Source: an uncultured archaeon | Lineage (GTDB): Archaea; Iainarchaeota; Iainarchaeia; Iainarchaeales; JAAZKV01 | Reading direction: 5' to 3' | DNA length: 32,000 bases | Assembly (NCBI GenBank): GCA_964551375.1 | Contig: CAZKBG010000001.1 | Location: 690,001-722,000 of the forward strand | Shown: piece after piece, positions 12,802 through 31,566 of the stretch | How the letters are laid out: each line of letters starts with the position of its first letter | Position numbering within the stretch: the stretch's first letter is position 1 | The notes under the pieces: generated by a model | The model's database searches: none | Told to the model about the DNA's origin: nothing | Seen by the model: only the letters and a program-made list of their open reading frames with translations | Program-made: the position numbers and the translations under genes

Positions 12802-13335
12802 TTAGAATTCAACTGATTCCCTTGCCAAAATTCCCTTATCAAACGGATGCTTTATTTTCTTTAAATTAGTAACATAATCGCCAAGCGCAAAAATATTTGG
12901 ATGCTCTTTATGAGAGCCTGTGATTACAAGCTCAAGCAAAGCGGGTTTTGATTTAATTACTGAAATAATATCATTTTCCTTTAACAACCCCAAATCAAGA
13001 CAATACAATAATTCATCAGCAACAATCAAATCAAAATCTTTTGAAACAACTGCTGATTTTAAAAAATTCAACGCTTCAATGGCCCCATTAATTGCTTCCT
13101 TTGTTAACGCGCTCTTAATTACCCAATCTTTTGAGCCGAACTGTTTGAAAGAAAAGTCCTTATTTTTCTGAAAAGAAATTATCTCCCCGTACTGGCCGAA
13201 CTGCTCCTGCGGGAATTTCATAAACTGAACTAAAAGAACTTTTTTATTATGCCCCAAAAATCTTGCAATGAGCCCTATGGCTGCAGTAGTCTTTCCTTTG
13301 CCATTGCCAAAATATATATGAACTAATCCAGCCAT
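12802..13335 (-). CDS. cobA: ATP:cob(I)alamin adenosyltransferase (CobA/CobO/BtuR type)
   Basis: The hallmark N-terminus is VHIYFGNGKGKTTAAIGLIARFLGHNKKVLLVQFMK, with DLIVADELLY and VITGSH further on. The ATG at 13335 is preferred; the 219-aa ORF extension would overlap the nrdJ 3' end. Confidence 0.85.
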   Translation of the reverse strand: MAGLVHIYFGNGKGKTTAAIGLIARFLGHNKKVLLVQFMKFPQEQFGQYGEIISFQKNKDFSFKQFGSKDWVIKSALTKEAINGAIEALNFLKSAVVSKDFDLIVADELLYCLDLGLLKENDIISVIKSKPALLELVITGSHKEHPNIFALGDYVTNLKKIKHPFDKGILARESVEF

Positions 13336-13433
13336 AACCAGCACTAACAAATATAAGAAAGCAAAAAAATAAAATAGGAACTCACAGCAAAAAGTGGTTG
13401 GATTAAGCTGGGTTAATTTCTGATGCGGCGATT

Positions 13434-16400
13434 TTAACTGCAGCCGCTTGTAGCGCCGCAATCTTCACAAACCGTGCAAGTACCATTTCTTCGAACTTTC
13501 ATGCTCCCGCACTCTCTGCAAGACTGGCCTGTATAACCCTTTGATTTAGCAATTGAAACATCTTCTGAAGAATTTCCTTGCGGCTTTTTTGGAACTTCAA
13601 AATTCTTTTCCACAAAAGCATTAGTATCAGTCAAGGGGGAGGCTGACAAAGTGGATTGGACTGCAACTTTGAGATTATCCTTCTTTGTTTCCTCAAGAGG
13701 TTTTATGTGAACAAAATCAGTTCTGCCCAAATATTCATATCCAAGCATTCTGAAAATGAAATCAAGAATTGAAGTGCATGATTTTATGCTATCGTGACCC
13801 ACAACCATTCCGCTCGGGTCAAATCTTGTGAAAGTGAATGAGTCTACAAACTCTTCAAGAGGAACTCCGTACTGAAGAGCTTTGCTTATCGCAACTGAGA
13901 AGCATGCTAAGAGGCTTCTATATGCCGCCCCTTCTTTATACATTGAAATAAATAACTCTCCAAGCGTGCCATCATCATATTCTCCGGTTTGGATGTAAAT
14001 CTTGTGCCCGTCAATGCTAATCTCCTGAGTGATTCCTCTTCTTCTCTTTGGCAAACGCTTTCTTTCAACAGTCTGAACAATCGCATTATGCAATTCTTTT
14101 GGACCAACTGTTTCATCAACATCATCATCAGCAGTAACTTTTAGCAGCTCTTCAGCAATATCCCCTGAAACTGCGTTAAGAGGCTGGGATAATTTGCTTC
14201 CGTCTCTGTAAAGCGCATTACTTTTCAGCATGCTTTTATGAGACAAAATATACGCTTTCTCAATATCAGCAATTGTCGCATGAGAAGGCATGTTAATTGT
14301 CTTTGAAATCGCTCCTGAAAGGAAAGGCTGAACTGAAGCCATCATTTTAATATGAGCATCCCAAGCAATGAACCTTGTGCCGTACTTGCCGCACTTATTT
14401 GCGCAATCAAATACTGATAAATCGCCTTTCTTTAAGTGAGGAGCGCCTTCAACAGTCATTGCGCCGCAAACATACTTATTAGTCTCTTCAATCTCTGATT
14501 TTGAAAACCCGAGAGATTTTAGCATATCAAAAGAATTGTCATTTAATTCATTTTCTGTAAATCCCAAACTTTTACAAAACTCTTCGCCGAGAACATATTT
14601 GTTGAAAATAAATTTTATATCAAATGCTGATTTCATTCCTGCTTCAAGCTTTGCAATCTCAAGGTCTGAAAACTTCTTTGATTTTAATTTATCAATAGTA
14701 ATTGCGGGACAATCCACTAAAGTTGCATGCCCTATTAAGTAATGCTCAATTTCCCTAATCTGGGATTCAGAATAACCAAGAGTTTTAAGCGCATAAGGCA
14801 CGCTGCTGTTCACAATTTTAAAATAACCGCCGCCAGCAAGTTTTTTGAATTTAACAAGCGCAAAATCAGGCTCAAGCCCTGTTGTGTCGCAGTCCATCAA
14901 TAATCCAATTGTTCCAGTCGGAGCAAGAAGAGACACCTGCGCATTTCTAAAACCAACTCTTTCACCCTTTGAGAGAGCATTAGTCCAAGCAAATTTTGAT
15001 TTTTCCACAATTTCCTTTGGACACAAATCTGTTTCAAATTTAACAGGCCTTATTGTAAGCCCCTCGTAACCTGCATCCCCTTCTGAAAATGCTGCGCGTT
15101 TATGATTTCTAATAACTTTTAACATATCTTTTTTATTAAGCTCATATTCTTCAAAAGCTCCAAAAAGCTCCGCCATTTCAGCGCTTGTTTCGTAAGAAAC
15201 TCCAGTCATTAGAGAAGTAATTCCTGCCGCAAGAGCCCTCCCTTCATTACTATCATACGCTAAACCAAGAAGCATTAACATGCTCCCAATATTCGCATAG
15301 CCCAAACCAAGCGAGCGGGTTTTATAGGTAACATCCGCAATTTCCTTACTTGGAAACTGCGCCATTGCAACTGAAATTTCTAAAACTATTGTCCAAATAC
15401 GAACTGCGTGAATAAATTCATCAACCAAAAATCTCCCTGATTTTACATCAAGGAATTTTACTAAATTAATTGAAGCTAAATTGCATGCAGAGTTGTCAAG
15501 GAAGAAAAACTCGCTGCAGGGATTACTTGAGCGAATCGGGCCTGACACAGGACAGGTGTGCCATTCATTAATTGTTGAATAAAACATTACTCCTGGATCC
15601 GCGCAGTTCCACGCAGCATAACAAATCTTGTCCCAAAGTTTTCTTGCAGGAAGAGTTTCACAAACAAAACCGTTTGTTCTCCACTTCAAATCCCAATTAG
15701 CATTTGAATCAAGCGCTTTGAAAAAAGAATTTGGAATTACAATCGAGTTATTTGAGTTCTGCCCCGCAACTGTAGCATATGCTTCGCTTTCAAAATGAGT
15801 ATTGTATTCAGTAATATCCATTGAGCATTTACCCTGCTGGGCTAATTGAAGGGCTCTAAAAACATAATTTAACGGAACTCCAAGCGCAATGGCTTTTTTT
15901 ACCGCAAGTTTTAATGGCCCGCTCTTTTCAGGATCATAACACTTTGCATCACATGCAATTTTCATTACTTTATTTATCTGATTAGCGCAAACCTTGCTTC
16001 CTGCAACTAAATCAGCAACCTTCTTTTCTTCTTCCATTTTCCAGTCAATAAATTCCTTTATTTCAGGATGATCAATGTCAAGCGCAACCATTTTAGCAGC
16101 TCTTCTTGTAGTTCCGCCGCTCTTTATGCTCCCCGCAACTGTGTCATAAATTTTTAAATAACTCATTAATCCTGAAGAAACTCCGCCGCCGCTTAACTTC
16201 TCCCCTTTGCCCCTAAGAGTGGAGAAATTTGTCCCTGTTCCTGAACCGTGCTTAAAAAGACGCCCCTCTCTTTTAATTAAATCAAAAATACCGCCTTCTT
16301 CCATTAGCGAATCTTTAACGTACTGAATGAAACAAGCATGCGGCTGAGGCCTTGCGTAAGCGTCGTTACTTAAAACAACTTCTCCTTTCTCAGCATCAAA

Positions 16401-16883
16401 ATAATAATGCCCATCGCTTGCGCCTGAAAAGCCATACATCCAGTGAAGCCCTGTGTTAAACCACTGAGGACTGTTTGGAGCAGCCATTTGAGCAAGAAGC
16501 ATATGCTTTAATTCTTCTTCAAAACTAAGCGCATCATCAGGAGAAGCAAACATATTCTCTTTATCGCCCCAATAACGCCAGCAGCCAGCAATTCTATTAA
16601 CAACCTGCTTAATTGAGCGCTCTCTTCCAGTCGCGGGAGCTCCTTTTTTTGGAACACCATTTGAATCGCACTCGGGAACCTTTGCGCGCTTGAAATACTT
16701 CTGCGCTAAAATATCAGTAGCGGTTTGGGACCAAAAAGTCGGCACTTCAACATCATTCTGCTCAAAAACAACAGAGCCGTCGGGGTTTCTTATGGAGCTT
16801 TTTCTTAATTCAAAAGTAAAAGAGTCAAAAACATTCTGCCCTTTTTTTGTAAAAACCCTATTTACCTTTAGCCCCTTAGCCAT
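13434..16883 (-). CDS. nrdJ: Adenosylcobalamin-dependent class II ribonucleotide reductase (long form)
   Basis: The N-terminus matches the class II RNR N-terminal domain pattern (VNRVFTKKG...FWSQTATDILAQKYF). The active-site region is SNPCSEFFFLDNSACNLASINL. The C-terminal zinc ribbon is CRECGSMKVRRNGTCTVCEDCGATSGCS. Confidence 0.93.
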   Translation of the reverse strand: MAKGLKVNRVFTKKGQNVFDSFTFELRKSSIRNPDGSVVFEQNDVEVPTFWSQTATDILAQKYFKRAKVPECDSNGVPKKGAPATGRERSIKQVVNRIAGCWRYWGDKENMFASPDDALSFEEELKHMLLAQMAAPNSPQWFNTGLHWMYGFSGASDGHYYFDAEKGEVVLSNDAYARPQPHACFIQYVKDSLMEEGGIFDLIKREGRLFKHGSGTGTNFSTLRGKGEKLSGGGVSSGLMSYLKIYDTVAGSIKSGGTTRRAAKMVALDIDHPEIKEFIDWKMEEEKKVADLVAGSKVCANQINKVMKIACDAKCYDPEKSGPLKLAVKKAIALGVPLNYVFRALQLAQQGKCSMDITEYNTHFESEAYATVAGQNSNNSIVIPNSFFKALDSNANWDLKWRTNGFVCETLPARKLWDKICYAAWNCADPGVMFYSTINEWHTCPVSGPIRSSNPCSEFFFLDNSACNLASINLVKFLDVKSGRFLVDEFIHAVRIWTIVLEISVAMAQFPSKEIADVTYKTRSLGLGYANIGSMLMLLGLAYDSNEGRALAAGITSLMTGVSYETSAEMAELFGAFEEYELNKKDMLKVIRNHKRAAFSEGDAGYEGLTIRPVKFETDLCPKEIVEKSKFAWTNALSKGERVGFRNAQVSLLAPTGTIGLLMDCDTTGLEPDFALVKFKKLAGGGYFKIVNSSVPYALKTLGYSESQIREIEHYLIGHATLVDCPAITIDKLKSKKFSDLEIAKLEAGMKSAFDIKFIFNKYVLGEEFCKSLGFTENELNDNSFDMLKSLGFSKSEIEETNKYVCGAMTVEGAPHLKKGDLSVFDCANKCGKYGTRFIAWDAHIKMMASVQPFLSGAISKTINMPSHATIADIEKAYILSHKSMLKSNALYRDGSKLSQPLNAVSGDIAEELLKVTADDDVDETVGPKELHNAIVQTVERKRLPKRRRGITQEISIDGHKIYIQTGEYDDGTLGELFISMYKEGAAYRSLLACFSVAISKALQYGVPLEEFVDSFTFTRFDPSGMVVGHDSIKSCTSILDFIFRMLGYEYLGRTDFVHIKPLEETKKDNLKVAVQSTLSASPLTDTNAFVEKNFEVPKKPQGNSSEDVSIAKSKGYTGQSCRECGSMKVRRNGTCTVCEDCGATSGCS

Positions 16884-16923
16884 TTACCCCACTACCCCCA
16901 AAATCCGCAAGAAATTTGATTAA

Positions 16924-17229
16924 TTATTCAACGATATCTAAAACGCGCCTCTTAAGCTCAAGCTTGTTAGCTGCTCCGCGCACAGTATCGACATGCTCAC
17001 CATTCTTAAAAATCAAAAAAGTAGGGAGACTTGTAATTCCATATCGGTGGGCAAGCTCTTCGGCCTGGGTAACATTAACTTTCAATACCCTTGCTTTGCC
17101 TGATAATTCGGTTGACAACGTGTCAAGATGAGGCATAAACGAAACACAATGAGGACACCATTCAGCCCAGAAATCAACCAATACTACTCCATTACTTACT
17201 TCACTATCAAAACTACTTGAAAAGGACAT
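16924..17229 (-). CDS. trxA: Thioredoxin with a CPHC active site
   Basis: VLVDFWAEWCPHCVSFMP ... ITSLPTFLIFKNG gives a thioredoxin fold of ~100 aa. It lies 40 nt upstream of nrdJ on the same strand. Confidence 0.9.
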   Translation of the reverse strand: MSFSSSFDSEVSNGVVLVDFWAEWCPHCVSFMPHLDTLSTELSGKARVLKVNVTQAEELAHRYGITSLPTFLIFKNGEHVDTVRGAANKLELKRRVLDIVE

Positions 17230-18638: not shown

Positions 18639-19277
18639 ATGGATGAAGAAGTGCTTGTTATAAAAAGAACCAACTTATTTGGAGAAAAAGATGAAACTGC
18701 TTTTACTGGATTCAAAACTCCAAGTGAATTTAAAATAAGCGAAACTGCAATGAAAAGCGCGCACTTTAGGCTTAGAAAAACAACAAGCCCCAATCAAGAC
18801 AAGCCCGCTGAAGAGGATGCTGATTACAAACAAATCATACCTTATATGATACTCACACACAAAGGAAAAATATTCTGCTTTAAACGAACTCCAAAAGGAA
18901 CTGAAACCCGGCTTCATAACAAATATTCAGTCGGACTTGGAGGACATATTAACAAAATTGATGTTAATGACAAGAAGAATTTGATTGAAGAAGGAATGAA
19001 ACGCGAATTTGAAGAAGAAGTAAAATACAGCGGAAAAACAAAAACAAAAATATTAGGATATATTAATGACGATTCAGGGGATGTTGAAAAAGTACACTTT
19101 GCAATAGTGTACCAAATAGAACTTGAAAATGATGAAGTGACGCTTGGGGAAGAAAAATTAACTGATGGAAAAATGTGCACTTTAAATGAAATCATAGAAA
19201 AAAAAGAATTTCTTGAAAACTGGAGCAAAACCACTATGAGCGCGCTGGAAAAATCAAATAATTCTCTAATAAAATAA
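18639..19277 (+). CDS. Nudix-family hydrolase (divergent Nudix box)
   Basis: GLGGHINK ... EEGMKREFEEEV contains the REUxEE core of the Nudix box. The upstream KQIIPYMIL...RLHNKYSVG pattern is typical of one Nudix subgroup. Confidence 0.65.
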   Translation: MDEEVLVIKRTNLFGEKDETAFTGFKTPSEFKISETAMKSAHFRLRKTTSPNQDKPAEEDADYKQIIPYMILTHKGKIFCFKRTPKGTETRLHNKYSVGLGGHINKIDVNDKKNLIEEGMKREFEEEVKYSGKTKTKILGYINDDSGDVEKVHFAIVYQIELENDEVTLGEEKLTDGKMCTLNEIIEKKEFLENWSKTTMSALEKSNNSLIK

Positions 19278-19330: not shown

Positions 19331-20569
19331 TTAAGGATAGAAAATAAACTTGCTGCACATTTCCTTTACTTCAGATTTTATTTTTTTGAGAGCATCAGGC
19401 GAATTCCTGTTTTGAAGAGCGCGATGCATAAAATCCGCAACAATTTTCATTTCTTTTTCCTTCATCCCGCGCGTTGTAAGCGTAGGAGTTCCAATTCTAA
19501 TTCCGCTTGGATCCCAAGGAGAGCGAGAATCATAAGGAATTGTGTTTTTGTTGCAATAAATTCCTGCTGCTTCAAGAGCGTGCTCCGCATCAATCCCAGT
19601 AATTCCACTCTTAAATACATCAACTAAAATCAAATGAGTATCTGTCCCGCCTGAAACAATACGATAACCATTATCTGCAAGAGAACCTGCAAGGGCTTTT
19701 GCATTTTTTACAATTTGAACTGAATAATCTTTAAACTCCGGCTTAAGCGCCTCTCCAAATGCCACAGCTTTTGCTGCAATCACATGCTCATGAGGACCCC
19801 CTTGAAGCCCAGGGAAAACTGCTTTGTCAATTTTTTCGCCAAACTCTTTTTTGCACATAATAAAACCGCTTCTTGGACCGCGAAGAGTCTTGTGAGTGGT
19901 GGAAGAAACTACATCAAAAAAAGGAACTGGATTTTCATGAACGCCTGCCGCGCACAAACCTGAAATGTGAGAAATATCTGCAACACAATACGCTCCCGCT
20001 TCGTCGCAAATCTTTCTGAATTCTTTAAAATCAATTGAGCGGGGATATGCTGTGTAGCCTGAAAGAATTAATTTTGGCTTTTCAAGAAGAACCTGCTTTC
20101 TAATCGCGTCATAATCTAAAAGCTCTGATTCTTTATCCACGTTATACTGAACAAAATTATATGTTTTTCCTGAAAAATTTACTTTATGCCCATGAGTCAA
20201 ATGCCCTCCAGCAATAAGCGCCATGCCCATTGCTTTATCCCCCGGGGAGAGAAGCGCTGAATAAACAGCCATATTTGCAGGAGAGCCAGAATTTGGCTGA
20301 ACATTAACATGCTCCGCGCTGAAAAGCTCTTTTGCCCTATTAATTGCAAGAAGCTCAATTTTATCAATAACTTCATTGCCGCCGTAATATCTTTTTCCCG
20401 GATAGCCTTCAGCATATTTATTTGTTGGATAAGAGCCAAGCGCTTCAAGAACTGCGGGAGAAACTAAGTTTTCTGAAGGAATAAGCTCAAGACCGTTCAT
20501 CTGCCTTTCTTTTTCAGCCAAAATCAAATCATAAATTACTTTATCCTGCTTTTTTATTGCCTCAAACAT
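19331..20569 (-). CDS. glyA: Serine hydroxymethyltransferase
   Basis: [36 protein letters not shown] and the PLP-lysine region [16 protein letters not shown] are classic SHMT. The ATG at 20569 (MFEAIKKQD) is preferred; the longer ORF would overlap thyA. Confidence 0.95.
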
Positions 20570-20625
20570 AAAAACCCCGACACCCTTAGTATAGATTATT
20601 ATATTTAATCTACTTAAAATATAAT
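20570..20625. promoter_or_regulatory. 56-bp divergent glyA/thyA promoter region
   Basis: The whole glyA-thyA spacer is AT-rich. TATA-like runs (TATAGATTATTATATTTAAT) are centred ~27 nt from both ATGs. This is compatible with two short-leader or leaderless transcripts. Confidence 0.4.
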
Positions 20626-21612
20626 ATGCAAACGCCAAAAAATGAACGGCACCAGGAATATCAGTACTTAGACTTATTAAAAGACATAATGGAAAACGGC
20701 ACTGACAAAAAAGACCATAACACAGGAATCAAACTCCGAAGCGTATTTGGCAGAACATCAAGATATGATTTATCAAAAGGATTTCCGCTTTTAACTACAA
20801 AAAAAGTTTACTGGAAAGGAGTTCTTCACGAACTTTACTGGTTCTTATCGGGACAGTCTAATATCAAATACCTTGTGGATAATGACGTGCATATTTGGGA
20901 TGATTATCCTTACAAAATTTACAAAAAGAAAGTTGAAGCAAATAAAGAAACTCCCATGACACAAGCGGAATTTATTTCCAATATTAAAAATGACGCTGAA
21001 TTTGCAAAAAAATGGGGGGAACTACCGCACATTTACGGAGCGCAGTGGAGACACTGGCCTGCAAAAGGAAGAGAAATAGACCAAATCGCCTGGGTTGTTG
21101 ACACACTCAAAAATTTCCCTGAAAGAAAACACGCGGTTGTGAGCGTATGGAATCCTGAATATTTATATGGAATGGCGCTTCCGGGACAAGCACTGAGCTT
21201 CCCATTATGCCACATACTTTTGCACTTCAATGTAAATGACGGCAAATTATCCTGCCTGCTTTACCAGAGAAGCTGCGATGTATTCCTTGGAGTTCCATTT
21301 AACATTGCAAGCTATGCGCTCTTAACAGAAATTATTGCAAAACTATGCGGATACGAGCCGGGCGAATTTATACACATGTATGGAGACACGCATATTTATG
21401 AAAACCACTTTGAACAAGTGAAAGAACAAATGTCAAGAGAGCCAAGACCATTTCCTAAATTAAGAATTTCTGACGAAGCAAAGGACTTAGCATCATTTAG
21501 ACCAGAACATGTAATACTTGAAGATTACAATCCGCACCCTCCAATTAAAGGCGAACTAACTGTTGCGGGCGGATTTGATGAAAAAGACAGATTAGCTAAG
21601 CAGAAAAAATAA
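20626..21612 (+). CDS. thyA: Thymidylate synthase ThyA (long form with an internal insertion)
   Basis: [53 protein letters not shown] and the catalytic Cys region [12 protein letters not shown], plus [21 protein letters not shown], match ThyA. A ~45-aa insertion follows HIWDDY. Confidence 0.93.
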
Positions 21613-21686
21613 CAAACGGAAAAAATTTAACTTAAAAAGAACTTATTTTTTAAAATTTCAATAAAATCAAATGAAGTGAAATACTA

Positions 21687-22160
21687 ATGGAACTCGAAAT
21701 AATAGCTGCGCTTACAAACACACACATAATAGGACAAAACGGGAGACTGCCTTGGAATATCCCCGCAGATATGAAGCATTTTAAGGAAATCACAACCGGA
21801 ACCGCAGTAATAATGGGAAAAAATACTTGGGAATCACTCCCTGAAAAATTTAAACCCCTGCCAAATAGAGTAAATATTGTAATTTCAAGAACGCTACATG
21901 AGGCAAAAGGAGCGACAATAGCAAGAACACTTGAAGAAGGAGTATATTTGGCGCACAAAGCAGGAAAAAGAGCAATAATTATTGGAGGAGCACAGCTTTA
22001 CACAAGCGCGCTACCCCTAGCAAATGTGCTCCACTTATCATGGATAAAAAAAGAATATCCTGGCGACACTTATTTTCCTAAATTTAACGAAAACGAATGG
22101 AATATTACTGAAGAAAAGGACTTTGGGGAATTTATTTACAAAAAATATGTTAGAAAGTAA
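21687..22160 (+). CDS. folA: Dihydrofolate reductase
   Basis: IIAALTNTHIIGQNGRLPWNIPADMKHFKEITTGTAVIMGKNTWESLP...PLPNRVNIVISRT...IIIGGAQLY matches DHFR. Confidence 0.9.
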   Translation: MELEIIAALTNTHIIGQNGRLPWNIPADMKHFKEITTGTAVIMGKNTWESLPEKFKPLPNRVNIVISRTLHEAKGATIARTLEEGVYLAHKAGKRAIIIGGAQLYTSALPLANVLHLSWIKKEYPGDTYFPKFNENEWNITEEKDFGEFIYKKYVRK

Positions 22161-25509: not shown

Positions 25510-26619
25510 TCACTTAGCATAATTTAATTCAAATTCTTTTTTAAGCTTCTCAAAATTATTTTCTTTAATTGCAACGCGGATGTCTTTGATTAAATTTGCA
25601 ATAAAAAAAGTATTATGATAACTTAACAGCATCAAGCCGTTCTGCTCATAAGTTTTAAACAAATGATGAAGGTACGCACGGGAATGATTTTTGCAAACAA
25701 AACAATTACACTTTGAATCAAGCGGTTCAAAAGATTCCTTATGAACTGCCCTGTCAATTTTAATCTGCCCTTTGTGAGTAAAAATCAAGCCATGCCGAGC
25801 CATTCTTGTCGGATAGGCTGAATCAAAAATATCCACTCCGCGCTCCACTAAATTTAAAATTTCAAGGGGAGAACCCACCCCCATTAAATACACAGGGAGG
25901 TTTTCGCTGATTATTTCTTTTGTGATTTGCGTCATATCATACATGCTCTTTGGATTTTCACCAATGCACAACCCGCCGACTGCGATTCCGTCAAAACCAA
26001 TTGCTTCAATGCTTACTGCTGATTTTTTTCTCAAATCAGGAAATGTCCCCCCTTGGGTAATTCCAAACAACAGTTGATTTTTATTTTTGTGGGCTTCTTT
26101 ACAGCGCAATGCCCATTCAGTAGTTCGAATCATTGCATCAAAATATTCCTCTCTTGATTTTCCAAAATGCACAAGGTGATCAAGACACATGGCAACATCA
26201 CTGCCAAGCGAATTTTGAATCTGAACTGCGCGCTCAGGAGTAATTAATTCAACGCTTTTATCAAAAGGGTTCTTGAAATAAACCCCCTTATCTGTCAAGT
26301 GATCTACAAAAGTTTCCGACAAGAGCTGAAAGCCGCCCGAGTCAGTGAAGAGAGCGCCGTTCCAGCCGAAGAACTTATGCAAGCCATCTGCTTTTTTTAC
26401 CAAATCAATTCCCGGCTTTAAATAATTTACAAAAGCATTTGTAATCAAACAATTAACTCCCATATCCTTTTCAAGTTCAGGATGAGTCACAAACTTTACC
26501 GCGCCTTTTGTAGCAACAGGCATGAAAAAGGGAGTTTCTAATTTTTTATGATGAGTAAAAAGAATGCCCGCACGCGCGCTTGAATTTTTGGATTTAGTTG
26601 TAATTTCAAAGCAACTCAT
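25510..26619 (-). CDS. tgt: tRNA-guanine transglycosylase, short single-domain form without PUA/C-terminal domains
   Basis: ARAGILFTHHKKLETPFFMPVATKG, FTDSGGFQLLS, GIAVGGLCIGE and the zinc site CNCFVCKNHSRAYLHHL match Tgt. The ATG at 26619 (MSCFEITTKS) is preferred; the upstream 50 codons are antisense to the SRP RNA. Confidence 0.88.
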   Translation of the reverse strand: MSCFEITTKSKNSSARAGILFTHHKKLETPFFMPVATKGAVKFVTHPELEKDMGVNCLITNAFVNYLKPGIDLVKKADGLHKFFGWNGALFTDSGGFQLLSETFVDHLTDKGVYFKNPFDKSVELITPERAVQIQNSLGSDVAMCLDHLVHFGKSREEYFDAMIRTTEWALRCKEAHKNKNQLLFGITQGGTFPDLRKKSAVSIEAIGFDGIAVGGLCIGENPKSMYDMTQITKEIISENLPVYLMGVGSPLEILNLVERGVDIFDSAYPTRMARHGLIFTHKGQIKIDRAVHKESFEPLDSKCNCFVCKNHSRAYLHHLFKTYEQNGLMLLSYHNTFFIANLIKDIRVAIKENNFEKLKKEFELNYAK

Positions 26620-26670
26620 ACCAATTACCCTAATAAGTAGTCTTTTAATTATTTCAAACCACAGATATTT

Positions 26671-26937
26671 CGGACTAGACTGGGCCGCTAGCGGTGGCTT
26701 GTAACCGGAAATCCGCTTTATGCCGGGGTTGAAGCTGGGGAAGAGGTTCGTAAGCTCTGCAGACACCATGCTGTTAGCGTCGAAGCTCTGTCCTTACAGG
26801 TGTTTTTTTAAAATGAACTCCGCCAGGGCAGGAATGCAGCAACGGTAGTTTTAGAAGAAGACGCTGAAGGGAAACGGAGTGGAGTTAGCGGTATGAAATG
26901 CCTGCAATGCCTGAAAAATCCATTTTCCAGCACGTCC
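26671..26937 (+). ncRNA. Signal recognition particle RNA (7S/SRP RNA), compact archaeal type
   Basis: This is a GC-rich island in AT-rich DNA. The 5' part is Alu-like, with an AGC-GGUG-GCU hairpin followed by CGG-AAAU-CCG. The helix 8 signature is UAAAA-UGAAC-UCCGCC-AGG-GCA[GGAA]UGC-AGCA-ACGGUAG-UUUUA (~26808-26853). AGCGUC (26775-26780) pairs with GACGCU (26861-26866). The 5' GGAC..UGG pairs with the 3' CCA..GUCC. A T5 run follows at 26938-26942, and a TATA-like TTTTAATTAT lies ~25 nt upstream. The ends are approximate. Confidence 0.85.
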
Positions 26938-27076
26938 TTTTTCTACATAAATTGTTAATTAAACCAATTTTAAGCTATTTAATGGCAAAAATAACCTGTG
27001 CCGGCAAAGAAGCGGGGCTTTGAAGGAACGTTTATATACTAAAAACGCTTTTATTTAATTAATACAAGGGGTCGAA

Positions 27077-27250
27077 ATGGTTTTCGAGAAAAAAATGTCT
27101 GTCAAAGACCTTATTGAACAAATGCGGGAAGAACTGCGAAACGAGCAGGAACAAAAAGAAACGTCACAAAAACCTGCAAAGAAGGGCAAAGCAAAGCCTA
27201 AGAAAGCTAAAAAGGCAAAAGCTAAGCCAAAAAAGAAAAAGAAGAAGTAA
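27077..27250 (+). CDS. Small (57-aa) protein with an acidic/helical head and a poly-Lys/Ala/Pro tail
   Basis: The ATG at 27077 is preceded by AAGGGG 7-12 nt upstream, with a TTTATATA box ~45 nt upstream. The translation is MVFEKKMSVKDLIEQMREELRNEQEQKETSQKPAKKGKAKPKKAKKAKAKPKKKKKK. It is below the ORF-track length cutoff, and the listed antisense 66-aa Phe-rich ORF is its mirror artefact. Confidence 0.45.
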   Translation: MVFEKKMSVKDLIEQMREELRNEQEQKETSQKPAKKGKAKPKKAKKAKAKPKKKKKK

Positions 27251-27251
27251 A

Positions 27252-27557
27252 TCACTTTGTTAAAGATTCCTTCTTTTTAATTTCCTTCTCAAGCGTCTTA
27301 AGAACACGCTGAACAACTTCTAAAAGCTGCCAATCAGTGTGCTCTGCAAAAAAAGTACCCCTTCCAAGAACTGCTTTTGCATGAATTTCATGCTGGGCGC
27401 GCAAGCCCCCTTTCTTATACTGTTTAAGCGAAAGCTGCAACTCCACATCAGGACCCACTTTTTTTACAAAATGAGCAATAGCCTTGTTAAACAATTCCAA
27501 GTCAACTTCATCAAGCTCAGGGAACTTAACTAATTTTACATTTGCCGGAACATCCAT
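27252..27557 (-). CDS. HPF/RaiA (ribosome hibernation/S30AE)-like protein
   Basis: 101 aa with a predicted beta-alpha-beta-beta-beta-alpha layout. The sequence pattern parallels bacterial HPF/YfiA: VKLVKF...DLELFNKAIAHFVKKV...VELQLSLKQ...HEIHAKAVLGRGTFFAEHTDWQLLEVVQRVLKTLEKEIKKK. This was assigned by eye only. Confidence 0.5.
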   Translation of the reverse strand: MDVPANVKLVKFPELDEVDLELFNKAIAHFVKKVGPDVELQLSLKQYKKGGLRAQHEIHAKAVLGRGTFFAEHTDWQLLEVVQRVLKTLEKEIKKKESLTK

Positions 27558-27706
27558 AAAAACACCACATCCAAAAAAGATAGAACTCTTAATAAAATTA
27601 GTTCAATTAGTTTAAAAAAAGATTGAAAAGCCAAACAAAACGCGCAAAAAAAGTGAAAACTGCCCGCGCCAGAAAGGTATTTAGTTATTACAACACAGCA
27701 TATATT

Positions 27707-29473
27707 ATGCAAAACTGCCCGAAAGAATACTCTAAACTTGCAAATACCGCAGTCAACCTTGCAAAAGAAAAGGGAGTAAAAAACTCCACGCTTGAAAGGA
27801 CTTGGAGAGTCGCCATGGATTTGTGCGATAAACAACTCCCTATTTCAGCAATCATTGCGGAAATAATAAAAGAAATCCCTCAAGAAAATATTTCTGAAGA
27901 AGAACTAATCAAACTATTTGGAAAAGAAGCGGTTGATATTTCAAATTATGTCAGACAGCTTAATTCAGTAATACAAAGCAATTACTTAAGAGTGCCTACT
28001 GAAACGCTGAATTCAATAATTCTTTCCATACCAAAGGACTTTCAGCCGATAATTTTAATGATTGCTGATGTAAGCGACATGCTTGAATATAATGACAAAA
28101 GCGGGCTTGAGAAAAATTTTGCAAAAAAAGCTGAAGAAATATGGTTTCCGCTCGCAACAAAACTTGGGCTTAGCAACTACGCATGGAAACTACAGGATTA
28201 CAGTTTTAGAGCAATAAACCCTGAAGGATACGCTAAAGTCAATATGCTTGTGAATAAAGACAGAAAAGCAAGAGAACAATTAATTAAAGATGTCATAAAC
28301 GAAATGCAAAAACTTTTAGCCGGAAAAATGAAAGCAAGGATTATGGGAAGGCCAAAAACACTCAAATCAATTCATGACAAGATGAAAAAAAAACCGTTCT
28401 CAAACATACATGATATTTACGGAATAAGAATAATCTGCGACAAAGAAAAAGAATGCTACGAAGCTTTGGGATATGCGCACTCAAAATATGAAATCATACC
28501 AGAATCTTTTGATGATTATATTACAAAGCCCTGGGCTGACGGATACCAGAGCATACATACCGCTGTGCGAAGAGGAGAAGATATTATTGAAATACAAATA
28601 CGAACATGGACGCACCACTTGCGTTCAATCTCTGATAGGTACTGGAATTACAAAAAAATAATGAAAGACAAGGAATTTGAGAAAGAACTAAGCTGGGAAA
28701 GACAGCTCTTAGAGTGGCAGAAGAACGAATCAGGAACTGGCTTAGGGAAAAAAATCAGCGGACAAAAAATATTTGCGTTTACTCCTAAAAATGAAGTAAT
28801 TGCGATGCCAAACGGAGCGACAGTGGTTGATTTTGCATTTGCAGTGCACACGGATATTGGCAAAAACATGGAAGGGGCAAAAGTCAACGGCAAAGTTGTC
28901 CCAATTGAAACTAAGCTCAAAAACTTGGACAGAGTTGAAATTATAACAAATCAAAAACCCCAGATGAAGAAAAACTGGATAGGGTTTGTAATAACAGAAA
29001 AAGCAAAACAAAAAATCAAATCAGTATTCGGGCTTAAGAGCATAAAAAAACCCGCTGCGCAAATAGGAATAAATGACATTAAAAAAATAAAAATGGCAGA
29101 ATGCTGCAACCCGCTCCCGGGAGAAGACGTAATAGGAGTAAAAACCACAAAAAGAAAAATAATAGTGCACAAAAAAGACTGCCCAAATATAAAAAAGATG
29201 GATAAATCCAAATTAATTGAAATAGGATTTGAAAGAGACAAAGGAAAAACACAAATAAGAGTGAACGTGCTTGACAGGCCAGGAATACTTCCCGAAATAC
29301 TTGACGAAATTAAAAAAGGTGGCGCAACTTTAATCAACACAAATTTCAAAATAAAGAAAACTGGATATGCTGAAGCAATATTTGGGATTGAAATATCAAG
29401 CGCCTCAAAACTTGACAAGTTAATTGAAAGAATTGAACAAATTCCGGGCGTTATGGGCGCTGAAAGACTGTAA
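27707..29473 (+). CDS. Long RelA/SpoT homologue: degenerate hydrolase domain, (p)ppGpp synthetase, TGS, Cys-rich zinc-finger-like and ACT regions
   Basis: Synthetase motifs are GRPKTLKSI, IHDIYGIRI, FDDYITKPWADGYQSIHTAV and IIEIQIRT. The TGS domain is IFAFTPKNEVIAMPNGATVVDFAFAVHTDIGKNMEGAKVNGKVVPIETKLKNLDRVEIIT. The Cys-rich motif is AECCNPLPGEDVIGV...IIVHKKDCPNI, and the ACT-like end is IRVNVLDRPGILPEILDEI. The N-terminal region aligns to the HD domain (LMIADVSDM, EEIWFPLATKLGLS) but lacks the His-Asp catalytic residues. The ORF opens at a TTG at 27623; the first ATG is at 27707. Confidence 0.85.
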   Translation: MQNCPKEYSKLANTAVNLAKEKGVKNSTLERTWRVAMDLCDKQLPISAIIAEIIKEIPQENISEEELIKLFGKEAVDISNYVRQLNSVIQSNYLRVPTETLNSIILSIPKDFQPIILMIADVSDMLEYNDKSGLEKNFAKKAEEIWFPLATKLGLSNYAWKLQDYSFRAINPEGYAKVNMLVNKDRKAREQLIKDVINEMQKLLAGKMKARIMGRPKTLKSIHDKMKKKPFSNIHDIYGIRIICDKEKECYEALGYAHSKYEIIPESFDDYITKPWADGYQSIHTAVRRGEDIIEIQIRTWTHHLRSISDRYWNYKKIMKDKEFEKELSWERQLLEWQKNESGTGLGKKISGQKIFAFTPKNEVIAMPNGATVVDFAFAVHTDIGKNMEGAKVNGKVVPIETKLKNLDRVEIITNQKPQMKKNWIGFVITEKAKQKIKSVFGLKSIKKPAAQIGINDIKKIKMAECCNPLPGEDVIGVKTTKRKIIVHKKDCPNIKKMDKSKLIEIGFERDKGKTQIRVNVLDRPGILPEILDEIKKGGATLINTNFKIKKTGYAEAIFGIEISSASKLDKLIERIEQIPGVMGAERL

Positions 29474-29545
29474 AACCAGCCACTCTGGCGCAAAAACGTA
29501 TTTATTTAAATCGATGGGAAGACATGTTTTTGGGAGTTGGTCAGA

Positions 29546-30739
29546 ATGAAGTTAAACATACAAATAGCTGTGCTATTTATTCTTTTTATTTTTGCAGCGG
29601 GGGCAATGGCGGCTGCGCCTGACGCAACACAAGTCACTTACAACCCAAGCCCTGCCGTGCCAGGAACAACAATGACTGTAATTATACAGCTTGAGAACAA
29701 ACAGCTTGTATCAGAAAATGATGTTTTTGTTAAACTAGAAAGCACATACCCTTTCACAGTAAAATCAAGCGAGACTGAACAAAATCCAAGAAGCATAGGA
29801 ACAATGGATAAATACGCAAAAGCGCAGGCAAGCTTCACAGTTTATGTTGACCCGACAGCAGAAAATAAAACATACACTTTCCCAGTAATAGTAACTTCAA
29901 ACGGAGACCAGACAGGAAAAAGAACTACTTTTTCAATTGTAATCAGCGGAAAAAGCCCTGTTCTAAAAGTAGTATCAACAACAAACGAGAAACTTCTCCC
30001 AGGACAGGAAAAAGAAATACCAATTACAATCCAAAACGTTGGAACAAGCCCAGCATATGATATAATTGCTGAAATACAAGAAGACAGGACTGTTACTGCA
30101 ACAGGAACAGTAATTGAAAGAGACATAACTTCAGTAGGCGCATCAACCGCATACTTAAATACAATAAATCCCGGCGAAAGAAAAGTGGCAAGCTTAAGAG
30201 TAAATGTAAGCAACACAGCAACAATCAAAAACTACCCTATTCCAATCAGAATCTCATACAGAGATGCAGCAGGAACAAGAATGACTGACACATCCTACAT
30301 CGGACTCAAAGTTTTTGGAACAGCAGATATTGACGCAACAATAAAAGAAAGCAGCGGATCATTCTCTGTGGGACAACAGTCGCAAGTAACTGTGGAAGTT
30401 TTCAATAAAGGATTAGGAAAAGCTGATTTCACACTAATTGAAGTAAGCACCACAGACGGAACTGTTCAAACACCAAAACAATTCATTGGAACACTCGGGC
30501 CAAATGATGTGGACACAGTAAAAACAACAATTGTATTCAACAGAAGCGGAGAACACGCAATTGATGTGAACATCACATACCAAGATGCGGATTCAACACA
30601 AAAGACAAAAACAATAACTCTGCCAGTAAAAACACAGCAAATTTCTGACGGCGGAATGAACCCAGTAATAATTATTGTCGCAATAATAGTAATTGCAGTA
30701 ATAATCTGGAACTTCTTCTTAAGAAAGAAAAAGAAATAG
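29546..30739 (+). CDS. Cell-surface (S-layer-like) protein with repeated CARDB/COG1361-type beta-sandwich domains and a C-terminal membrane anchor
   Basis: It has a signal peptide (MKLNIQIAVLFILFIFAAGAMA). Repeated modules of the form P..PG......I.N.G...A... occur three times (e.g. LLPGQEKEIPITIQNVGTSPAYDI). The C-terminal TM helix (PVIIIVAIIVIAVIIWNFF) is followed by RKKKK. A GGGAG precedes the ATG at 29546. Confidence 0.7.
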   Translation: MKLNIQIAVLFILFIFAAGAMAAAPDATQVTYNPSPAVPGTTMTVIIQLENKQLVSENDVFVKLESTYPFTVKSSETEQNPRSIGTMDKYAKAQASFTVYVDPTAENKTYTFPVIVTSNGDQTGKRTTFSIVISGKSPVLKVVSTTNEKLLPGQEKEIPITIQNVGTSPAYDIIAEIQEDRTVTATGTVIERDITSVGASTAYLNTINPGERKVASLRVNVSNTATIKNYPIPIRISYRDAAGTRMTDTSYIGLKVFGTADIDATIKESSGSFSVGQQSQVTVEVFNKGLGKADFTLIEVSTTDGTVQTPKQFIGTLGPNDVDTVKTTIVFNRSGEHAIDVNITYQDADSTQKTKTITLPVKTQQISDGGMNPVIIIVAIIVIAVIIWNFFLRKKKK

Positions 30740-30831: not shown

Positions 30832-31566
30832 TCAAACATTGTAGTCTTCTTCAACCTTATGAACCTTAATCCCGTCATCAGAAATCTGAATCGGGTGCAA
30901 ATCTTCGCTGTGCTTAGTCGCGCGCATTTTTCTAATATGAAGAGTACGATTGCTCTGAGTGCCAAGCCCCATATAATGCAGCACCACAACACCGTCTGCA
31001 ACAAATTCTTCAACACCATACTTGCCAATCTGCTTTGAGTCTTCATTAATTTCAGTAGTGAAGACTGTTGTAACACCGGCTCTCGAAAGAAGATAAACAA
31101 TCTTTAAAACAGCCTTTCTAATCTCGTGCTCAGAGTCAAAATTCAAGCCAAGCGCAGGAATTGAATCAATAACAACCCTCTTAGCTTTGATTTTCTTAAT
31201 AGCACGCATTAATTCAAGCAAAAGCTTGTCAAGATCAAACCCAGTGGCTGGGAGAGAGAATTCTTCATCACTTGGAATTCCAAGCTTAGCCATTGTTCCG
31301 TCAACAATTCTAATCATCCCCGCATCTTCATACTGGCGCAAATTCCAGCCGAACCTCAACATATCTTCCCTAATCAAGTCAGGGCGCTCATCAAGAGTAA
31401 GATAAACTCCCGGCTCGTTTAATTTAACTCCGGAAACCAAATACTGCATCGCAAAAATAGTTTTGCCTGTCCCTGTTCCGCCTGAAATCAAAAAGCTTCT
31501 TCCTTCAGGCAGCCCGCCTTCAACCAGTTCGTCAAAACCGCCAATTCCAGTCTTAATACGATTCAT
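30832..31566 (-). CDS. Single-domain KaiC/RecA-superfamily ATPase
   Basis: RIKTGIGGFDELVEGGLPEGRSFLISGGTGTGKTIFAMQYL carries the Walker A motif and RVVIDSI the Walker B motif. The ~240-aa size is typical of archaeal stand-alone KaiC-like proteins. Confidence 0.8.
   Translation of the reverse strand: MNRIKTGIGGFDELVEGGLPEGRSFLISGGTGTGKTIFAMQYLVSGVKLNEPGVYLTLDERPDLIREDMLRFGWNLRQYEDAGMIRIVDGTMAKLGIPSDEEFSLPATGFDLDKLLLELMRAIKKIKAKRVVIDSIPALGLNFDSEHEIRKAVLKIVYLLSRAGVTTVFTTEINEDSKQIGKYGVEEFVADGVVVLHYMGLGTQSNRTLHIRKMRATKHSEDLHPIQISDDGIKVHKVEEDYNV

Follow-up and report, generated by a model that had tools for sequence, protein, structure and literature searches.

A head-to-head gene pair encoding a long RelA/SpoT homologue (RSH) and a small HPF/RaiA-like protein was identified in a 32,000 nt stretch of DNA from an uncultured archaeon (contig CAZKBG010000001.1, positions 690,001–722,000; hereafter the window), whose genome belongs to the Iainarchaeota (Diapherotrites, DPANN). 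The gene for the small protein, classed in the following as HPF-only, is located on the minus strand (27252–27557, 101 aa), and the RSH gene on the plus strand (27707–29473, 588 aa counted from ATG 27707). An original prediction, made from the sequence alone, had proposed two divergently transcribed genes around a control region of 65–150 bp, and both open reading frames (ORFs) are present, separated by 149 bp from ATG 27707 or by 65 bp if an upstream TTG is counted. With moderate confidence, the pair is interpreted as two genuine, vertically inherited Iainarchaeota genes coding for a synthetase-only RSH and an HPF-only protein, for which a starvation module is adopted as the working model.

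The open frame of the RSH reaches back to TTG 27623, which would give a protein of 616 aa (27623–29473, +). This start was considered unlikely, since it abuts an A/T-rich box in the spacer, and since the database annotation places the start at ATG 27707 (588 aa), as do all homologues at the corresponding position.

Pfam searches of the RSH returned RelA_SpoT (PF04607) with 95 bits (gathering score 27, E = 4e-27), TGS with 65.8 bits and ACT_4 with 47.8 bits. HD_4 reached 26.8 bits, just under its cut-off of 27.2; the corresponding region is all-alpha in the AlphaFold2 (AF2) model and aligns with the N-terminal domains of Rel/RelA structures. The closest solved relative is ribosome-bound E. coli RelA (5iqr, 259 bits), and the AF2 model (pLDDT 76) likewise had 5iqr_8 as best Foldseek match (E = 1e-33), with full-length SpoT and B. 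subtilis Rel as the next matches. Along the plus strand, the protein comprises an HD_4-like, all-alpha pseudo-hydrolase domain (27740–28171; assigned from the HD_4 score, a motif table and the AF2 helices), a (p)ppGpp synthetase domain (28346–28657; GRPK..S...K, D-IYGIRI, FDD, GYQSIHT and EIQIRT motifs), a TGS domain with its DFAFAVH motif kept (28769–28948), a short linker where bacteria have the alpha-helical (AH) domain (28949–29089; from alignment, spacing and AF2 model), a zinc-finger or ribosome-intersubunit (RIS) region with the motif AECCNPLPGED...VHKKDCPN (29090–29188; precomputed PF28438 RelA_RIS match on homologues) and an ACT/RRM domain (29249–29467; beta-alpha-beta-beta-alpha-beta in the model, with ACT domains among the Foldseek matches). 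The layout that had been anticipated, with pseudo-hydrolase, synthetase, TGS, Cys-rich and ACT regions, is thus borne out by the Pfam scores, the 5iqr match and the CCxPxPGE...H...C motif.

Comparison with a canonical bacterial-type Rel in the motif table revealed every synthetase motif to be intact, and the same motifs are present in 13 of 13 archaeal sequences compared and intact in the RSHs of the deep Iainarchaeota clade. Across 16 RSH homologues of 46–82% identity, R215/K217, D236, Y280/H284 and E295/Q297/R299 are invariant, as are the zinc-finger motif CCxPxPGE..H..C and the TGS motif DFAFAVH. Nucleotide-binding and catalytic roles, including that of the Mg-binding Asp, are presumed for the synthetase residues after RelSeq D264/E323. 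Judged by this invariance, the synthetase site appears to be under purifying selection. At the hydrolase positions HP..VA, HDxxED and ADRLHNMRT, the window RSH reads ERTWRVAM, IIKE-IPQE and IADVSDMLEY, respectively, so that HD is replaced by KE and ADRLHNMRT by ADVSDMLEY. Because the catalytic HD motifs are absent, the enzyme is RelA-like and not of the bifunctional Rel/SpoT subtype, and the acidic FDD motif of the substrate site is likewise taken to be RelA-like under the RXKD/EXDD distinction. With its degenerate HD domain and intact synthetase motifs, the RSH is predicted to be synthetase-only. The HD domain has decayed in steps: a Woesearchaeota RSH (locus L033) has the motif intact, deep Iainarchaeota show HD/HN, and in the core clade it is gone. 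NUDIX hydrolase genes occur within 5–9 kb of the RSH, both in the window (18639–19277, +) and at the deep-lineage locus L046 (9811–10254, −). Since the hydrolase domain of the RSH is dead, such an enzyme is a candidate for an alarmone-degrading activity, and alarmone degradation by a Nudix enzyme has been reported for Thermus (cited in PMC3153485).

The region between TGS domain and zinc finger is shortened. It spans 90 residues in the window RSH and 90–96 residues in all Iainarchaeota, versus 176 residues in bacterial-type Rel. In the alignment with E. coli RelA, residues 497–608 of RelA are without counterpart and residues 470–490 of the query stand in their place; Pfam RelA_AH_RIS is matched only at model positions 90–181, and the AF2 model shows a single short helix where the AH domain would be expected. 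The AH domain is nearly deleted in all Iainarchaeota RSHs, with about 85 residues gone. In the core clade, the helix following EIQIRT is remodelled as well, HLRIE..YW replacing H..AE.G.AAHW with a deletion of two residues. The RSH is a divergent subfamily that stays below the NCBIfam cut-offs, both for spoT_relA (TIGR00691; 367 versus 499 bits) and for the RelA and SpoT equivalogs (279 versus 728 and 244 versus 947 bits).

For the 101 aa protein, the Pfam score for Ribosomal_S30AE (PF02482) amounted to 16.7 bits, under the gathering score of 23.7, and 12 of 19 close relatives gave similar sub-threshold scores (best E = 0.0021). The profile check that had been suggested for the pair was therefore positive for RelA_SpoT, TGS and ACT_4, whereas S30AE and HD_4 remained short of their thresholds. 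The suggested structure prediction supported an HPF fold: for the model (pLDDT 88.8), the top 34 Foldseek matches in the PDB are all HPF/YfiA/pY/PSRP1 structures, many of them solved on ribosomes, with a best E of 4e-6 and TM values of 0.6–0.74 (TM-score 0.74/0.78 to E. coli HPF, 6h4n_x), and double-stranded-RNA-binding domains follow as weaker matches at ranks 35–50. Sequence searches against the PDB with the single sequence and with a narrow family profile (A1) yielded only chance-level matches (SNF8, bromodomain). A broader profile (A3) retrieved the C-terminal domain of P. abyssi HibA (9sr9_H, E = 2e-4), Listeria HPF (E = 5.9e-4) and S. aureus HPF (E = 6.5e-3), 15 of the top 20 PDB matches being HPF/RaiA. 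In a search of 1.8 billion representatives with the A1 profile, 166 relatives were collected, with CBS-HPF proteins at E of about 1e-12; roughly half of the relatives are proteins of 350–390 aa in which four CBS domains precede an HPF-like domain. One of these 4xCBS relatives (P0149) aligns end to end with 9sr9_H, which is P. abyssi HibA (PMC13324472).

In HibA, the C-terminal domain occupies the mRNA/tRNA channel of the 30S subunit and contacts h44, uS12 and uS19; its insertion 283-SAL-285 contacts the uS19 tail, and its insertion 324-KFRGVHL-330 contacts uS12 and stabilises the decoding bases (PMC13324472). Both archaea-specific insertions are present in the window protein, PEL aligning with SAL and KGGLRAQH with KFRGVHL, and both fall within the most conserved motifs of the HPF-only family, bacterial HPF being gapped at the second. 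The protein carries a basic C-terminal tail and, according to Pfam, no CBS domain. Because its nearest relatives are HibA domains and the archaea-specific insertions are present, it is assigned, on this sequence evidence, to the HibA/AHA lineage as a CBS-less member of the HPF/RaiA-like or HPF-only class, not as HibA proper. Of the proposal that it resembles bacterial HPF/RaiA, the fold accordingly stands and the bacterial type does not. Co-transfer of a bacterial HPF together with the RSH was rejected, given the archaeal HibA domains as nearest relatives, the archaea-specific insertions and a full HibA occupying the same slot at locus L054. Only the RSH of the pair looks like a bacterial import, so the description as a bacterial-type pair holds for one member.

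Conservation of the pair, another of the checks proposed at the outset, was assessed in a scan of GTDB species representatives, which gave 32 Iainarchaeota loci with an RSH 47–62% identical to that of the window. The HPF-like gene lies upstream on the opposite strand in all 32, and the same head-to-head pair was found at L052/L053, from a more divergent lineage. The pair thus recurs in 33 core-clade loci, comprising the 32 species representatives plus L052/L053, on contigs of up to 985 kb. Spacers were compared for 32 pairs, i.e. 31 of the scanned loci plus the window (L014 was left out, having no RSH start call). They measure 61–212 bp in 29 of the 32 pairs and 61–82 nt in 15 loci; the three others have a spacer of about 1.5 kb, into which a 1.3 kb S-adenosylhomocysteine (AdoHcy) hydrolase gene is inserted. 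The HPF-like gene of L010 (3281–3641, −) is broken into two reading frames, as is the RSH of L054 (3–892, −), which lies at the contig edge; these breaks are due either to sequencing errors that shift the frame or to pseudogenisation in the MAGs concerned.

In deeper lineages, the RSH is 34–38% identical to that of the window. At L054, it is divergent to a triose-phosphate isomerase (TIM) gene that is followed by a full 4xCBS-HibA gene, and at L046 and L047 the arrangement is the same with an HPF-only gene in the place of HibA. The series from L054 through L046 and L047 to the core clade indicates that the HPF-only gene arose from HibA in place, beside the RSH. TIM itself is the divergent neighbour of the RSH in deep Iainarchaeota (L046, L047, L048, L051, L054, L056) and forms a tight pair with HibA or HPF-only, the two genes overlapping by 4 nt in L046, L047 and L056 and being separated by 46 nt in L054. 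They are apparently co-transcribed, as an unexpected operon of glycolysis and hibernation factor. A single-domain KaiC-like ATPase gene is also linked to the RSH over the whole phylum-level range (L046 4935–5675, L047 7928–8668, L051 7965–8708). In the deep clade it is directly downstream and co-directional, 40–130 bp past the RSH stop codon; in the core clade it is located beyond a CARDB surface protein gene and its orientation flips. This RSH-KaiC linkage is at least as persistent as that between RSH and HPF.

The spacer of the window (27558–27706, 149 bp) belongs to a set with a mean of 74% A+T across related spacers. In 27 of 32 loci, the RSH ATG is preceded by a TATA-like box that starts 27–32 nt upstream, compared with 1.07 expected from shuffled sequences, and its centre has a median distance of 25.5 nt from that ATG; the loci are related, so these counts do not represent independent events. 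Shine-Dalgarno-like sequences were found before the RSH in 1 of 32 loci, whereas GGAGG or GGTG precedes the HPF-like gene in 27 of 32. A TATA-like box at about −29 combined with the near absence of Shine-Dalgarno sequences implies a leaderless RSH mRNA; the RSH transcript thus appears to be leaderless and the HPF-like gene to have a Shine-Dalgarno leader. In the window, a Shine-Dalgarno-like TGGTG read from the sequence (27563–27567, −) stands 6–10 nt upstream of the HPF-like ATG. The conserved A/T box GTTTAAAAAAAGATTG (27610–27625), the canonical, TATA-like box of the clade, is the motif that close relatives have at about −29 of the RSH ATG; in the window, 57 nt separate its centre from the HPF-like ATG, and about 92 nt separate it from ATG 27707. 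A weaker TATA-like box, TATTTAGT (27678–27685, +), begins exactly 29 nt upstream of ATG 27707, at the position typical for the clade. In some spacers of 69–73 nt, the A/T box forms the middle of a 22 nt palindrome, AGAAGTTATTAAAATAACTTCT, which is perfect in L016, L024 and L027 and imperfect in L023. Only one A/T box fits in these spacers, so promoter space is shared there, and AGAAGTTATTAAAATAACTTCT could be either a symmetric bidirectional promoter of the form BRE-TATA-BRE (BRE, TFB recognition element) or the operator of a dimeric regulator. A single shared bidirectional TATA box was considered plausible only in the shortest spacers, as it is the RSH, and not the HPF-like gene, to which the distance of the box is constant.

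Metagenome-assembled genomes (MAGs) holding homologues of both proteins are labelled Candidatus Diapherotrites, Iainarchaeum, ainarchaeum or Forterrea. The surroundings had been called unambiguously archaeal. This applies to an archaeal signal recognition particle (SRP) RNA (26668–26941, +; Rfam 120 bits versus a gathering score of 96.5), to the KaiC-like ATPase (30832–31566, −) and to a gene for tRNA-Phe in which CCA is not encoded; further genes of the window code for RadA/Rad51 with a helix-hairpin-helix (HhH) domain, an RPA-type single-stranded DNA-binding protein (SSB), geranylgeranylglyceryl phosphate (GGGP) synthase (PcrB), SRP54 and FtsY. It does not apply to the neighbouring tgt (25510–26769, −), which is of the bacterial queuosine type (TIGR00430, 386.9 versus a cut-off of 306.75) and stays below the cut-off of the archaeosine TgtA model (170 versus 350), so that the neighbourhood is not purely archaeal-type. 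The mechanically called tgt ORF overlaps the SRP RNA by about 100 nt, and an internal Met near 26619 is probably its true start. Rfam returned neither a riboswitch nor any other element for 26500–30000, even at E ≤ 1. Inverted repeats at 27230–27283 were rejected as an element, since they arise because each strand codes for a Lys-rich C-terminus there.

A Lys-rich ORF of 57 aa (27077–27250, +) is positioned tail-to-tail with the HPF-like gene, the stop codons lying 1 nt apart. Its product begins with MVFEKKMSVKDLIEQMREELRNEQ... and ends in a KKAKPKK-type tail; the first 20 or so residues are near-invariant and the basic tail is variable. It was detected by tblastn at the same position in 29 of the 32 related loci and matches no Pfam family, and its product could be a nucleic-acid- or ribosome-binding protein. 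Two further groups of genes in the window have a bacterial flavour, namely a B12-dependent class II ribonucleotide reductase (1149 aa) with corrinoid adenosyltransferase and thioredoxin (12802–17229, −), and SHMT, ThyA and DHFR, which constitute a folate-dependent thymidylate cycle (19331–22160). Both fit the heavy import of bacterial genes reported for DPANN.

Both gene families, and their presence in DPANN, have been published already, and the pair represents no novel class of system. Atkinson et al. 2011 had detected no archaeal long RSH (PMC3153485). RelA/SpoT occurs, according to Li et al. 2021, in 69% of Diapherotrites, 41.7% of Woesearchaeota, 21.3% of Pacearchaeota and 19% of Nanoarchaeota, and the archaeal proteins were inferred to be of bacterial origin (PMC8407392). 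A CBS-HPF hibernation factor has been established by cryo-EM and genetics, as HibA (Nat Commun 2026, PMC13324472) and as AHA (bioRxiv 2026, PMC12934967). Stand-alone HPF/RaiA-like proteins are present in 8% of archaea, "mostly DPANN and Nitrososphaerales", and "may also contribute" (PMC13324472); 926 HPF-only proteins were counted in 814 species (PMC12934967). The premise of the original prediction that neither family is known from archaea is contradicted by these surveys, and its view that archaeal hibernation factors are unrelated to HPF is outdated. In bacteria, expression of hibernation factors is driven by (p)ppGpp, and the system coupling starvation to hibernation is stated to be "absent in archaea" (PMC12934967), which are also described as being without stringent-response control of hibernation (PMC10249747). 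RelA/SpoT is not mentioned in the HibA or AHA papers (PMC13324472, PMC12934967), and no description of an RSH/HPF-only gene pairing was found in the open-access literature. The apparent novelty lies in the conserved pairing, which derives from an arrangement of RSH, TIM and HibA, in the architecture of the archaeal RSH (synthetase-only, without an AH domain), and in the promoter geometry.

Bacterial RelA monitors uncharged tRNA on the ribosome through its TGS, zinc-finger/RIS and ACT/RRM domains. Gene identities, folds, conserved motifs, the recurrence of the pair and the geometry of its promoters are direct observations; the product of the enzyme, ribosome binding and any regulatory coupling are deduced. 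By the mechanism we infer for the pair, the archaeal RSH would sense translation stress via the corresponding TGS, zinc-finger and ACT domains and most likely make (p)ppGpp from ATP and GTP or GDP, whereupon the alarmone level would rise. HPF-only, presumably derived in this lineage from HibA/AHA by loss of the AMP-sensing CBS module, would most likely plug the mRNA/tRNA channel and decoding centre of the archaeal 30S subunit and thereby silence and protect idle ribosomes, so that a rising alarmone would lead to ribosomes being parked by the hibernation factor. The two might be coupled by co-transcription from the compact spacer, or the alarmone may have replaced the lost CBS/AMP input. In its most far-reaching form, the proposal would amount to the first alarmone-controlled ribosome hibernation in archaea, an AH-less RelA sensing uncharged tRNA on an archaeal ribosome and (p)ppGpp controlling a CBS-less HPF via the divergent promoter or via direct nucleotide effects on translation factors; this form is speculative and, as it stands, unlikely.

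Several observations weigh against the starvation module. The entire block of RadA, tgt, K-rich ORF, HPF-like gene, RSH, CARDB protein and KaiC retains its gene order in these 32 loci; adjacency by itself is therefore weak evidence for coupling and no proof of selected linkage, and the notion that it proves coupling had to be tempered. The growth-arrest circuit that had been proposed is drawn from this adjacency, which is conserved, but so is the whole block; the circuit is unproven. The position of the A/T box is fixed relative to the RSH, and between 38 and 187 nt separate it from the HPF-like ATG. At L048/L049 and L051, the RSH faces TIM without an HPF-like gene, at L050 neither TIM nor an HPF-like gene adjoins it, and at L057 an HPF-like gene stands alone without an RSH beside it, linkage from the HPF side being sampled at few loci, a large share of which lie on very short contigs. 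Without the AH domain, and with the helix after EIQIRT altered, the enzyme could differ in activity or in the way it docks on the ribosome. In the 32 kb window and the locus flanks of up to 6 kb, no (p)ppGpp hydrolase came to light, a genome-wide search not having been made, and the proteins for which ribosome binding of the HibA/AHA type was demonstrated were full-length and contained CBS domains, unlike HPF-only. It is possible, if clearly less probable than the starvation module, that the genes are what they appear to be and are neighbours merely by conserved order in a slowly rearranging lineage, acting independently and without a circuit. The loci without an HPF-like neighbour (L048, L050, L051) would fit such a history, as would the order of RadA, tgt, K-rich ORF, CARDB protein and KaiC, which is kept in 21–31 of 32 loci and limited mainly by contig ends, the linkage of RadA and KaiC to the RSH even in the deep clade, and the tolerance of the AdoHcy hydrolase gene inside the pair in three loci. 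It is less easily reconciled with a pair that has outlived three local rearrangements (loss of the CBS module, removal of TIM, flips of KaiC orientation) and that stays linked in L046 and L047, where tgt, K-rich ORF and CARDB gene are absent, nor with the very short spacers of 15 loci and their overlapping promoter space; moreover, alarmone signalling and hibernation factors are functionally linked in bacteria.

Doubts may also concern the proteins themselves. If the RSH were not a classical ribosome-activated (p)ppGpp synthetase, and instead were constitutive or ribosome-independent, made another nucleotide or acted mainly as a tRNA- or ribosome-binding regulator, the deletion of about 85 residues common to all Iainarchaeota RSHs, the core-clade HLRIE..YW helix with its two-residue deletion, the sub-threshold spoT_relA score and the lack of a hydrolase partner in the window would find an explanation; the invariance of nucleotide-binding and catalytic motif residues across 46–82% identity, together with strongly conserved TGS, zinc-finger and ACT domains that are hard to explain without ribosome or tRNA sensing, makes this distinctly unlikely. 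That the small protein is an HPF fold put to other use, as an RNA-binding or RSH-regulating partner, is more doubtful still. Its S30AE score is below threshold, double-stranded-RNA-binding domains are among the weaker structural matches, and archaeal HPF-only proteins are without experimental study, PMC13324472 going no further than the wording quoted above; on the other hand, the 34 leading structural matches are all HPF/RaiA, ribosome-bound or free, homology to HibA and HPF is evident at profile level, and the protein keeps the two insertions that contact uS19 and uS12 in HibA as well as a basic C-terminal tail. An assembly chimera of bacterial and archaeal DNA, contamination or a cassette acquired very recently from bacteria was rejected, its probability being practically nil: the RSH is of bacterial ancestry and the adjoining tgt of bacterial type, but the G+C content is level at 0.37 across the locus, the exact proteins are present on a 946 kb database contig (RSH copy P0020, identical), 32 species-level MAGs, independent of each other and produced by many studies, show the same arrangement with 46–62% divergence and on contigs of up to 985 kb, and the small protein is of archaeal lineage. 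The earlier suggestion of a domesticated module rather than contamination is in agreement with this flat composition and with the 33 core-clade loci.

The starvation module, which remains the favoured interpretation, bears on the position taken in PMC10249747 and PMC12934967 that (p)ppGpp signalling and its coupling to hibernation are inoperative in archaea. Against that view, a RelA-type enzyme that looks catalytically intact is maintained throughout a DPANN lineage, head-to-head with a hibernation-factor gene derived from HibA. As a defined two-gene system, the locus lends itself to asking if alarmones are made by any archaeon, in what way a bacterial ribosome sensor was adapted to the archaeal ribosome given the loss of the AH domain, and what replaces energy sensing once HibA loses its CBS module. 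It would matter all the more if alarmone-controlled hibernation were true.

Among known systems, the RSH is closest to E. coli RelA (5IQR, 5KPV), a monofunctional long RSH that is both its best sequence match and its best structural match. The two share the order of pseudo-HD, SYNTH, TGS, zinc-finger/RIS and ACT domains, an inactive hydrolase, an acidic motif of the (E)xDD type (FDD in the window) and intact synthetase motifs. They differ in length (588 versus 744 aa), in the AH domain, which is short by about 85–110 residues, and in the remodelled post-EIQIRT helix of the core clade; moreover, the window RSH scores below the NCBIfam cut-offs and, as a putative synthetase, would need to dock on an archaeal, eukaryote-like ribosome. 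The long RSH of a Woesearchaeota locus (L033 5794–7737, +; 648 aa) is likewise from DPANN and is also shortened between TGS and zinc finger (110 residues). It is 28% identical to the window RSH, has an intact HD domain (HD_4 129 bits; HP..VA, HDxxED, ADRxHNM) with an RxKD-type motif, and shows neither a detectable ACT domain nor an HPF-like neighbour. This enzyme is probably bifunctional, judging from its motifs, and its comparison with the Iainarchaeota RSH indicates that DPANN carry at least two types of long RSH, probably bifunctional and synthetase-only.

The small protein is homologous to the C-terminal HPF/RaiA-like domain of HibA (P. abyssi, T. barophilus) and AHA (H. volcanii), with which it shares the fold and both archaea-specific insertions, and whose full-length form fills the same slot next to the RSH in L054. 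It differs from them in the absence of the N-terminal 4xCBS module, and hence would have no AMP/ATP sensing and no contacts to the 50S subunit or the peptidyl-transferase centre. Likeness to bacterial short HPF and RaiA (YfiA) is evident from the TM values of 0.74/0.78 (6h4n_x) and the Listeria HPF profile match (E = 6e-4), but identity is only 10–19%, the nearest relatives of the window protein are archaeal, and its beta2-beta3 hairpin (KKGGLRAQHE) is longer, the extension being absent in bacterial HPF. To our knowledge, the link between alarmone and hibernation in bacteria is transcriptional and the genes concerned are not usually adjacent, and we know of no (p)ppGpp target in archaeal transcription. 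The same two functional classes that are connected in bacteria by the (p)ppGpp-dependent induction of rmf, hpf and raiA are encoded together here, and the joint presence of an alarmone synthetase and an HPF-family factor suggests an analogous logic leading from starvation to hibernation.

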